From: a virus
Lineage: Duplodnaviria; Heunggongvirae; Uroviricota; Caudoviricetes
IMG/VR virus record: IMGVR_UViG_2879770953_000008
Span: 1 to 24,805 of that record
DNA length: 24,805 nt
Reading direction: 5' to 3' (one strand)
This document shows, piece by piece, positions 15,001 through 18,000 of this stretch. The first letter of the stretch is position 1. Every line of letters starts with the position of its first letter. A program made the position numbers.

Positions 15001-18000
15001 CGGGTATCGCTGTAATGCGTTTTTTGCTCATCTTCAGCGTTGGCATAGCTGAATGACGTCACCAGCCCCAGCGTGTCCGTAAACTCATAACGGTATTTCA
15101 CGTTAATGCCCTTCAGGTCATCGCTGCCTGGCATATCAGTATGGGGCTGAAGATACCCGGCGCTCAGCGTGGACTGATGTTCAGACGCCCATGCAGGCGC
15201 ACCGGATACAGCCAGACAGATGGCTGCGGACAAAATGGCTGCACAAACTTTACGCATAATTACCTCTCGCTTTTCTGCAATAAAAAAGGCACCATTTCTG
15301 GTGCCCGTATCTGGGTTATAAAATTCAGCTAATCGTGATGCCTGCAGTGGCTTTCTTCATCACAACAACCAGCAAATCGCTGATACTTGCTGTGGGATAC
15401 CAGCCATTTACCAGCCATGCCGATACAGAAAACTCCAGCGTCATGTGACCGTGACCGGCAGGCATATCAATAACACCCGTATATATCAGCGTATTATCCA
15501 GGGTCGTTCGGTTATAAATTTCAGCACCGTTTTTCTTCACTATCAGGCGGCATGACGAATAAATATTGTTATTCTTCCGCTCATGTTTAGCACCGCGAAA
15601 CGCCACCGCGGGAATAACAATTTGCCGATCAAACGGCTGATCGTCATAAACCCTGACGGTAATGGTCCCTGATGGCCACCTCTCCGGTGCCCGGGAGTCC
15701 CGTGGGAAAGGTTTGCCCACTGTTTTAACGAGATCGCCTTCAATCTGGTTCGCGGACAATTTTCCCAGAACCCGACAGTTCTTATTAATCGTGACGTTGT
15801 TGAGCGTCCCGGAGTTCGCGTTCACGTTACCGCTGATATCGGCATTTTTCGCCGTCAGCCGTCCGCCAGGTGTCAGGGAAAATGCCGGAGGATTACCGCC
15901 GCTGGTAATGGTCGGAGCCGTCAGGCGTTTCAGGAACACGTCGTTCATGAATATCTGATCGCTCTGACCAACAAACATCGGCTTTGTGTTGCCATTCGCA
16001 GGATTAATCATCGCAATCCTGTCTGCCGCCAGCAGCACCTGACTCTGCATTCCTGCTGGCGTATTCTCAATACCGGCACCGATACCCGCAATATAAAGGC
16101 GTCCGTCCTTCATCTGTTGCAGCTTCACAGCCCACATGCTGTTCAGGTTATTATTTGTATCAACCTGAACTTTCTGTATCTGCTGGATTGCAGCACTCTG
16201 ATTTTCCAGTGTTTTATTGACGGTTTGCGTGATTTCATTGCTGACATTCGTAATGGACGTCCTGATTTCAGTCAGGTCCGGCGCAAGCTGACCGTTATCA
16301 ATCTGCGTCCACAACTCCTTGCCGAGATGCGTTTTATTGATCAACCCTTTATAAAAACTCAGATAACCTTCCGCATAATCGCTCGCCCGACCGACGGCCT
16401 CCACAAATGCCGATTTGCCAACGGTGTTCACACTGCGAACGTAAAAATAATAATCATGGCCCGGCCTGATATTGATACTGGCGGCTATCCAGTACAGCGC
16501 CGTGCCAAGATAGCGGGCGCTGGTTTCAACCTGCCTGATATCCGCAATCCGCTTTTCCGAAAACCAGAACTCAAACTGCACCGTCGGGTCATATACAGCC
16601 AGTTTCGGGACCACCGTTATCTGAAAATACCCCGGTATCAGTTCAATAGTGACAGGCGCTGCCGGTGCCGCAATCCGGAACGATACCGACGCCGGATCGC
16701 CCTGCTGCCCCCGGGCATTTACCGCCCGGACTGTCAGACTGTAATTCCCCAGCGCCAGCTGCCTGAAGCGGTATGTGGTTTCCGTCGTCCTGGCTGTGCT
16801 GACCAGCCGCTCACTGCCGTCGTCCGCTGCCACGGTCAGGCGAAGCAGGAAGCTCACACCCTTCACCACCTTCGGCGTGTCCCATCGCTCCAGCACCTGA
16901 TATTCCCCGCTGTCTGCGGTGACTTCGGCGGTCAGATGCTGCACCGCTGGCGGCGTGACACCATTCACCGTGCCGCGCCGGTCACCGTCAAAGTGTGCCC
17001 CGTTATCCACGATGGCCTCTTTTTCCGGCACATGCTGCACGGCGGTGATGGCATACGTGCCGTCGTCGTTCTCACGGATACTCACGCAGCGGAACAGGCG
17101 CTGGCGCAGCGTCGGCAGCTTCAGCCCCCACACGCTGTATTCTGCAACGCCGTCAGGAACCCGGCTCACTTTCACCTTCACGCCGTCGGTGACGGACTGA
17201 ACCTCCACGCTGACCGGATTGCCATTTCCGTCAACCAGGCTTATCAGCGTGGTACCGGAGGACGGCAGCGTGATTTCACGGTCGAGCGTCAGCGTCCGGG
17301 TCTGGCTGTTCACCGCCAGTACGCGACCACCGGTGCTGATACCGGCATAATCATCATCGCAGATTTCAATGACATCACCCGGTACATGGCGAAGCCCTTC
17401 TGCGCCGACGCTGAAGTCCACGGTCTGCGTTTCCAGCAGTTCCGTTTTAATCAGCCACAGCCCGGCGCGGTGCGCCTGTCCCCGGCTGGTACAGCCAAAG
17501 GCATCCATCTTCGTGACGTTACGACCGTAACGGACAATGGCCTGCGTGTCCTCCACAAGCTCTGTCGCCGTCTCATGACCGTTGTCCGGATCAATCCAGT
17601 TCACCTCAACGACATTATGGCGGTCCTTCAGGGCGCTGAAGCTGTAGCGGAACGGCGCGCCATCATCCGGCATCACCACATTACTGCGGTTATAGGTCCA
17701 CACTTTATCCGACGGTCGGTCCTGCACGAACGTCAGCGTCTGCCCGTTCCATACCGGCATACAGCGCATCGCCGAGCAGAAATCACTGAGAACATCCCAC
17801 GCCTTACGCTGTGTGGTCAGGTAAGCGTTACAGGTGATGCGCGGCTCCGTGCCGCCAAATCCGTCCGGCACTGACTGGTCGCAGTACTGGCCGATGACAT
17901 ACAGCGCCCATTTGTCCACATCTGCCGCACCACGACGTTTCCCCATGCCTTAGCGCGGATGAGTGAGCATGTCCCACAGACACCAGGCCATGTTGTTGCT

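Follow-up and report, generated by a model that had tools for sequence, protein, structure and literature searches.

An ochre codon splits the tail-tip gene J of an ipaH-linked, lambda-like prophage remnant of Shigella flexneri type

Gene J and the state of its tail module

The window, by which we mean the whole 24,805-nucleotide stretch of the tailed-phage record IMGVR_UViG_2879770953_000008 that was analysed, carries on its minus strand a lambda-like tail module with the gene order H-M-L-K-I-J-lom-stf known from phage lambda, followed by a DUF4376 gene. The state of each gene was read by tblastn of every intact gene of a reference prophage (L001) onto the window and a subsequent listing of indels, and in this series of minus-strand matches J occupies its usual place within the tail operon. 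The reference comes from the ipaH-carrying, EIEC-like strain FDAARGOS_943, which holds the closest intact J orthologue among 5,426 complete E. coli genomes. The features referred to below are as follows.

10663..12426, plus strand: ipaH, 587 aa, an intact NEL-type T3SS effector E3 ubiquitin ligase gene (IpaH_Shig, NF046045)
12606..13229, minus strand: DUF4376 gene, 207 aa, open, in tail-fibre-assembly position (tblastn)
13183..14636, minus strand: stf-like side tail fibre gene, pseudogene, one G lost (-1) near 13385
14658..15257, minus strand: lom (Ail/Lom outer-membrane protein), open (tblastn)
15325..18804, minus strand: J (tail-tip / host-specificity) pseudogene, 1160 codons including the terminal stop (translation)
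15325..17946, minus strand: C-terminal J fragment ORF, 873 aa, opening at the native Met287, 3 nt after the stop
17950..17952, minus strand: premature TAA (ochre) at codon 285, ancestral TAC (Tyr), mutated base at window 17950
17950..18804, minus strand: N-terminal J fragment ORF, 284 aa, with the FNIII-A_GpJ domain only
18865..19406, minus strand: tail assembly gene I, pseudogene, one G lost (-1) in a G-run near 19150, matched in two tblastn frames
19406..20146, minus strand: K (C40/JAB peptidase), open (tblastn, residues 1-247, ungapped, 99.6%)
20151..20849, minus strand: L (minor tail protein), open (tblastn)
20849..21178, minus strand: M (minor tail protein), open (tblastn)
21181..21886, minus strand: stub of the tape-measure gene H, residues ~779-1013 only (~235 codons), one G gained (+1 frameshift) near 21380
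21928..23148, minus strand: IS3-family IS (transposase ORFs 21928-22746 and 22782-23084), replacing everything upstream of the H stub

The original prediction had placed a TAA at 17950-17952 in frame between two long J ORFs, in a frame of roughly 1160 codons that is open elsewhere and at a position where lambda J has Tyr, and each of these points was borne out. Both the gene and its stop belong to the minus strand: positions 17945-17958 of the plus strand are ATGCC TTA GCGCGG, and the TTA at 17950-17952 is, by direct reading, TAA on the minus strand. Translation of the 1160-codon frame (18804..15325) meets only one stop before the end of the gene, at codon 285, and the ORF listing gives two abutting ORFs of 284 aa and 873 aa in the same frame, the ATG of the second standing one codon past the stop. 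When intact J was compared with the window by tblastn, residues 1-1159 were recovered in one ungapped HSP in one frame, and this homology on both sides of the stop rules out a chance juxtaposition of ORFs. Around the stop the gene is near-identical to that of lambda, which reads THPRYGMGKRLGAAD and has Tyr285 (PDB 8iyk_J) at the mutated codon.

The likeness to lambda gpJ (PDB 8IYK, NF049904) is colinear over the whole length. The NCBIfam model lambda_TipJ (NF049904) aligns with the two fragments at model positions 1-284 and 287-1163, and the fragments score 621.8 bits (284 aa) and 1693.8 bits (873 aa), each below the cutoff of 1950 but above it in sum. The locus is the J gene by descent, yet neither single product meets the cutoff of the TipJ family. 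All Pfam matches to Phage-tail_3, Ig_J, Phage_Tail_Tip and Ig_GpJ_C fall within the 873-aa part, which holds the hub, the central fibre and the C-terminal parts, and the expectation that a 284-aa fragment would lack the receptor-binding end therefore held as well. The uninterrupted product of ~1130-1160 aa with a C-terminal receptor-binding domain that characterises J is not encoded, the frame being closed by TAA at codon 285, and it is in this interruption, and in being carried by a non-viable remnant, that the window's J differs from that of lambda. The sequence of its C-terminal receptor-binding region presumably differs from lambda's too. Past the J stop lies a terminator-like hairpin (15306-15287); apart from this hairpin, matches to promoter and terminator consensus signals within and around J were at chance level.

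The original prediction also implied that loss of J had inactivated the phage. J is indeed broken, but it is not the sole cause, since the tail module, a dead prophage remnant unable to build a virion, has at least five disabling lesions, of which that in J is one. Besides J, the genes H, I and stf are broken and IS elements stand on both sides, and no head, lysis, replication or regulatory genes of a lambda-like phage were found within the 24.8-kb window; H, I, J and stf are, in contrast, uninterrupted in the prophages L001 and L029. Gene I is split after residue 87, and the same split into 87 aa and 97 aa is seen in S. flexneri loci. Homology of the window to one of these (L003) stops at 23148, at the outer end of the IS next to the H stub. 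The frameshifts of H, I and stf (21380, 19150 and 13385) each consist of one G gained or lost in a run of 4-6 G, and two S. flexneri loci (L003 and L005) show no indel relative to the window. As the frameshifts are common to independent S. flexneri assemblies, they are genuine mutations by slippage, and homopolymer errors of sequencing do not account for them.

Ancestral state and distribution of the TAA allele

Window J and the J of L001 align over 3480 nt with 0 indels and 14 substitutions (99.6% nucleotide identity), and among the latter is the change from TAC in L001 to TAA in the window at J nucleotide 855, which is window 17950. Comparison with orthologous prophages of related strains, named as a check in the original prediction, gave a uniform answer: the five intact relatives that we compared (EIEC L001, S. 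flexneri L013 and L014, and L015 and L017 of S. boydii Sb227) all have C at this base of codon 285 and all read Y285, which places a C-to-A transversion of the coding strand in the lineage of the window. Nucleotide identity of the window's J to L001 and L015 is 99.5-99.6%. The intact ipaH lambdoid prophages of EIEC CFSAN029787 and FDAARGOS_943 and of S. boydii Sb227 share the tail layout of the window and the position of ipaH, and differ from it in having TAC at codon 285.

Relative to the five intact relatives we found seven J changes unique to the window's lineage, namely Y285*, five missense changes (L291R, A639E, D810Y, K865T and G948S) and one synonymous change. The resulting ratio of non-synonymous changes (the stop included) to synonymous ones, 6:1, rests on small counts and is similar to the ratios in intact relatives (7:2, 4:4 and 3:2), and may weakly support a loss of constraint in J. 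The accompanying changes mean that the stop is probably not brand new. Of the earlier claim of a recent single-base inactivation, the single base (TAC to TAA) stands, and "recent" needs qualifying, since the allele is lineage-wide, is present in at least two paralogous remnants and comes with further missense changes; the word holds only in the broad sense, in that no other stop interrupts the frame, J is still 99.6% identical to its intact counterpart, and neither the S. boydii nor the EIEC relatives have the allele.

One of the two paralogous prophages of EIEC CFSAN029787, at the aspS locus (L002), has J, lom, stf and ipaHd annotated as frameshifted and shows many indel columns against the window, and the other, at btsS (L029), is clean. 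The frameshifts of L002 may stem from a decay of its own or from indel errors of a long-read assembly.

Exact copies of the two products of the split J occur in NCBI and Logan assemblies, 648 contigs having the 284-aa product and 515 the 873-aa one, with source names of Shigella flexneri or E. coli. We fetched 20 loci (L003-L012 and L019-L028), among them that of the complete 4.52-Mb chromosome CP066809.1 and those of long-read assemblies; the split into 284 aa and 873 aa was found in every one, and those that were compared with the window have zero substitutions in J. Intact J versions of S. flexneri occur on only 2-3 contigs each. A 31-mer with TAA, centred on the mutated base and of a length chosen so that megablast's 28-base word must span that base, matched 0 of 5,426 complete E. 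coli genomes, and the control 31-mer with TAC matched 9 genomes at 20 places in the same set, the two genomes inspected being ipaH-carrying and EIEC-like. The TAA allele of J is real, is confined to a Shigella flexneri-type lineage and is the predominant form there. Set against intact orthologues, the split is a genuine disabling mutation, TAC to TAA relative to five relatives and present on hundreds of contigs, as is expected of a pseudogene.

The ipaH cargo and the copies of the dead tract

The Sf301 genome paper is said to have defined the ipaH islands. In S. flexneri the chromosomal ipaH genes are embedded in lambdoid prophage remnants together with IS elements (PMC4226921, PMC8072062). 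The window follows the same plan, with the gene of an IpaH-family NEL E3 ligase standing beside lambdoid tail-fibre genes and IS elements: its ipaH, which scores 561.1 bits with NCBIfam IpaH_Shig (NF046045, cutoff 550), lies just past the tail-fibre genes on the opposite strand, among IS3-family elements and broken phage genes. From the known islands it differs in nothing essential, and what is added here are the mapped lesions and the near-identity of the tail module between two islands. A search upstream of ipaH for an MxiE box, using the consensus GTATCGTTTTTTTANAG, which is perhaps imprecise, gave no match with up to two mismatches.

At least four IS3-family elements lie in the 24.8 kb (3687-4900, 9254-10144, 21928-23148 and 23443-24647), where they bound or interrupt both prophage remnants of the window; two of them are the same element, as their transposase scores are identical. 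The second remnant, at 480-9250, is that of an unrelated prophage ~98.9% identical to Shigella phage Sf6, and is flanked by a ybhB-like PEBP gene (1-471). It contains an oac-like O-acetyltransferase gene (1025-2026, 333 aa), the ejection proteins gp16, gp20 and gp7 (5376-9166) and, at 2060-3616, a tailspike gene that has lost its 5' part to an IS.

There are at least two physical copies of the tail remnant per S. flexneri genome, a count to be read with the fact that many long-read loci end inside the repeat. In one context the left flank is ybhD(LysR)-pgl-IS1-NEL fragment-DUF4376-IS and the right flank, as in the window, is ipaH(587 aa)-IS-Sf6-like ejection genes; in the other the left flank is IS110-FI-Z-U-V-G-T-H and the right one ipaH(583 aa)-dinI-yecD-aspS. 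Both left flanks were found within one assembly in two cases, as L009 and L011 in GCA_903995775.1 and as L024 and L025 in GCA_903995745.1, and each of these four loci has the 284+873 split of J, the 87+97-aa split of I and the C-terminal frameshift of H.

The copies with aspS on the right (L004, L010 and L012) differ from the window by 0-1 substitutions from 21884 to just before 12993 (~8.9 kb), the sole substitution, at 14180, being found in L004 and L012. From 12993 to 11444, in the DUF4376-ipaH region, the same comparison gives 33 substitutions (~2% divergence). The near-identical block holds the ochre codon of J and the frameshifts of H and I, and that of stf is common to the copies at least in part. 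Such near-identity is unlike that of the two intact paralogous prophages within the single genome of EIEC CFSAN029787, which are 8-38 substitutions per kb (1-4%) apart across M-J. The aspS/yecD locus is occupied in EIEC by a separate prophage.

The repeat from H to ipaH (9-10 kb) is seen with several pairings of flanks, pgl on the left with Sf6 on the right, FI on the left with aspS on the right, and FI on the left with Sf6 on the right (L003, L004, L005; L019, L020, L022). This variety suggests inversion or recombination between copies, misassembly being also possible with many loci ending within the repeat. A second, partial DUF4376-ipaH(NEL) copy is present in L003 (3218-4800, against window 11644-13226), inverted and 99.6% identical; in related strains it sits just past the IS that truncates H, where the window has the IS at 23443-24647.

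Origin and spread of the split J

Taken together, these observations suggest that J is very probably a true pseudogene, produced by a C-to-A nonsense change in a decayed ipaH-carrying, lambda-like remnant and later copied between remnants. A C-to-A transversion of the coding strand at window 17950 turned the TAC of Tyr285 into the ochre codon TAA, and the carrier appears today as a remnant that can no longer be induced, in a chromosome of Shigella flexneri type. Were the region transcribed, and J is probably not expressed, translation would stop after 284 residues and leave a product without the hub, fibre and receptor-binding parts, so that no functional tail tip would be made. The stop is likely to have been one among several neutral decay lesions, together with the IS truncation and frameshift of H and the frameshifts of I and stf, which could accumulate because only the cargo needs keeping (ipaH and possibly lom). 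Gene conversion or homologous exchange may then have carried the dead allele from one paralogous ipaH remnant to another within the chromosome, and such copying would account for a stop, and for H and I frameshifts, that recur unchanged in differently flanked copies.

Two readings would leave J intact or in use. The original prediction had allowed that the TAA might be a sequencing error, the true codon being TAC or TAT and J intact, and such an error, whether of sequencing or of assembly, would agree with the fact that one base only differs in a J frame that is otherwise open. However, the exact truncated products recur on hundreds of independent NCBI and Logan (SRA-run) contigs, a complete chromosome among them, short-read and long-read assemblies agree at J, and the lineage-specific L291R close by travels with the stop. 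We rejected a sequencing error on the exact fragment matches in hundreds of independent assemblies, and its probability is practically nil. It is also highly improbable, if somewhat less so, that the split J still functions, either through readthrough or suppression of the ochre codon or through termination and reinitiation at TAA GGC ATG, giving polypeptides of 284 aa and 873 aa. The 873-codon ORF does begin with an ATG 3 nt past the stop and has stayed open in all copies, but this ATG is the native Met287 of J and not a new one, and an open downstream frame is expected of a young pseudogene that is 99.6% identical to intact J. The sole SD-like AAGG on which reinitiation could rely stands too close to the ATG, at a distance of 1 nt, and for suppression the window offers no tRNA gene, a search for such genes having found none in it, suppressor or other. 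Recoding is opposed by the restriction of the stop to one lineage, by Tyr in lambda and in all intact relatives and by the absence of the TAA 31-mer from the 5,426 genomes. Moreover, with H, I and stf, the partners of J, themselves broken and the head genes lost, there is no virion to use J.

How the true pseudogene came to be present in several remnants is a separate matter. A phage with such lesions could not infect and lysogenise twice, which means that the copies came to share them either within one chromosome or through homologous exchange from strain to strain. We favour gene conversion of the dead J allele into a pre-existing paralogue as the likely course, because the boundary of the near-identical tract is sharp, the cargo is different, and the aspS/yecD site holds a separate prophage in EIEC. 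The identical stop might instead reflect a segmental duplication of an already dead remnant, or an IS-mediated rearrangement, which we judge unlikely, if a good deal more plausible than the readings above: the copies agree, at 0-1 substitutions, over a long tract of ~8.9 kb that carries at least three identical lesions, and the region is rich in IS and shows differing flank combinations among strains (L003, L004 and L005). Yet the cargo differs (ipaH of 587 aa against 583 aa), divergence rises to ~2%, with 33 substitutions, past the sharp boundary near 12993, and the copies stand at loci that have separate intact prophages in EIEC, such as aspS/yecD. Recombination into a pre-existing paralogue would seem to fit better than wholesale duplication. 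A very unlikely extension of this reading is that gene conversion has homogenised the dead block from the H stub to stf (~8.9 kb) among the S. flexneri ipaH islands, the repeats then acting as substrates of recombination for the large inversions that distinguish strains; more speculative still is a variant in which the 873-aa fragment is made by reinitiation and benefits the host.

The J stop is ordinary prophage decay, in a genome known for its pseudogenes and IS expansion, and it raises no new biological question. It is nonetheless of practical consequence for annotation, since hundreds of deposited Shigella assemblies list the halves of J as two distinct 'host specificity proteins' where a single pseudogene should be read. 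The locus also offers a clean example of how Shigella retains prophage cargo (ipaH) while virion genes decay, and near-identical dead prophage tracts at several chromosomal sites can mediate rearrangements. The only point that we regard as mildly notable is that the dead tract is almost free of substitutions between at least two ipaH islands.
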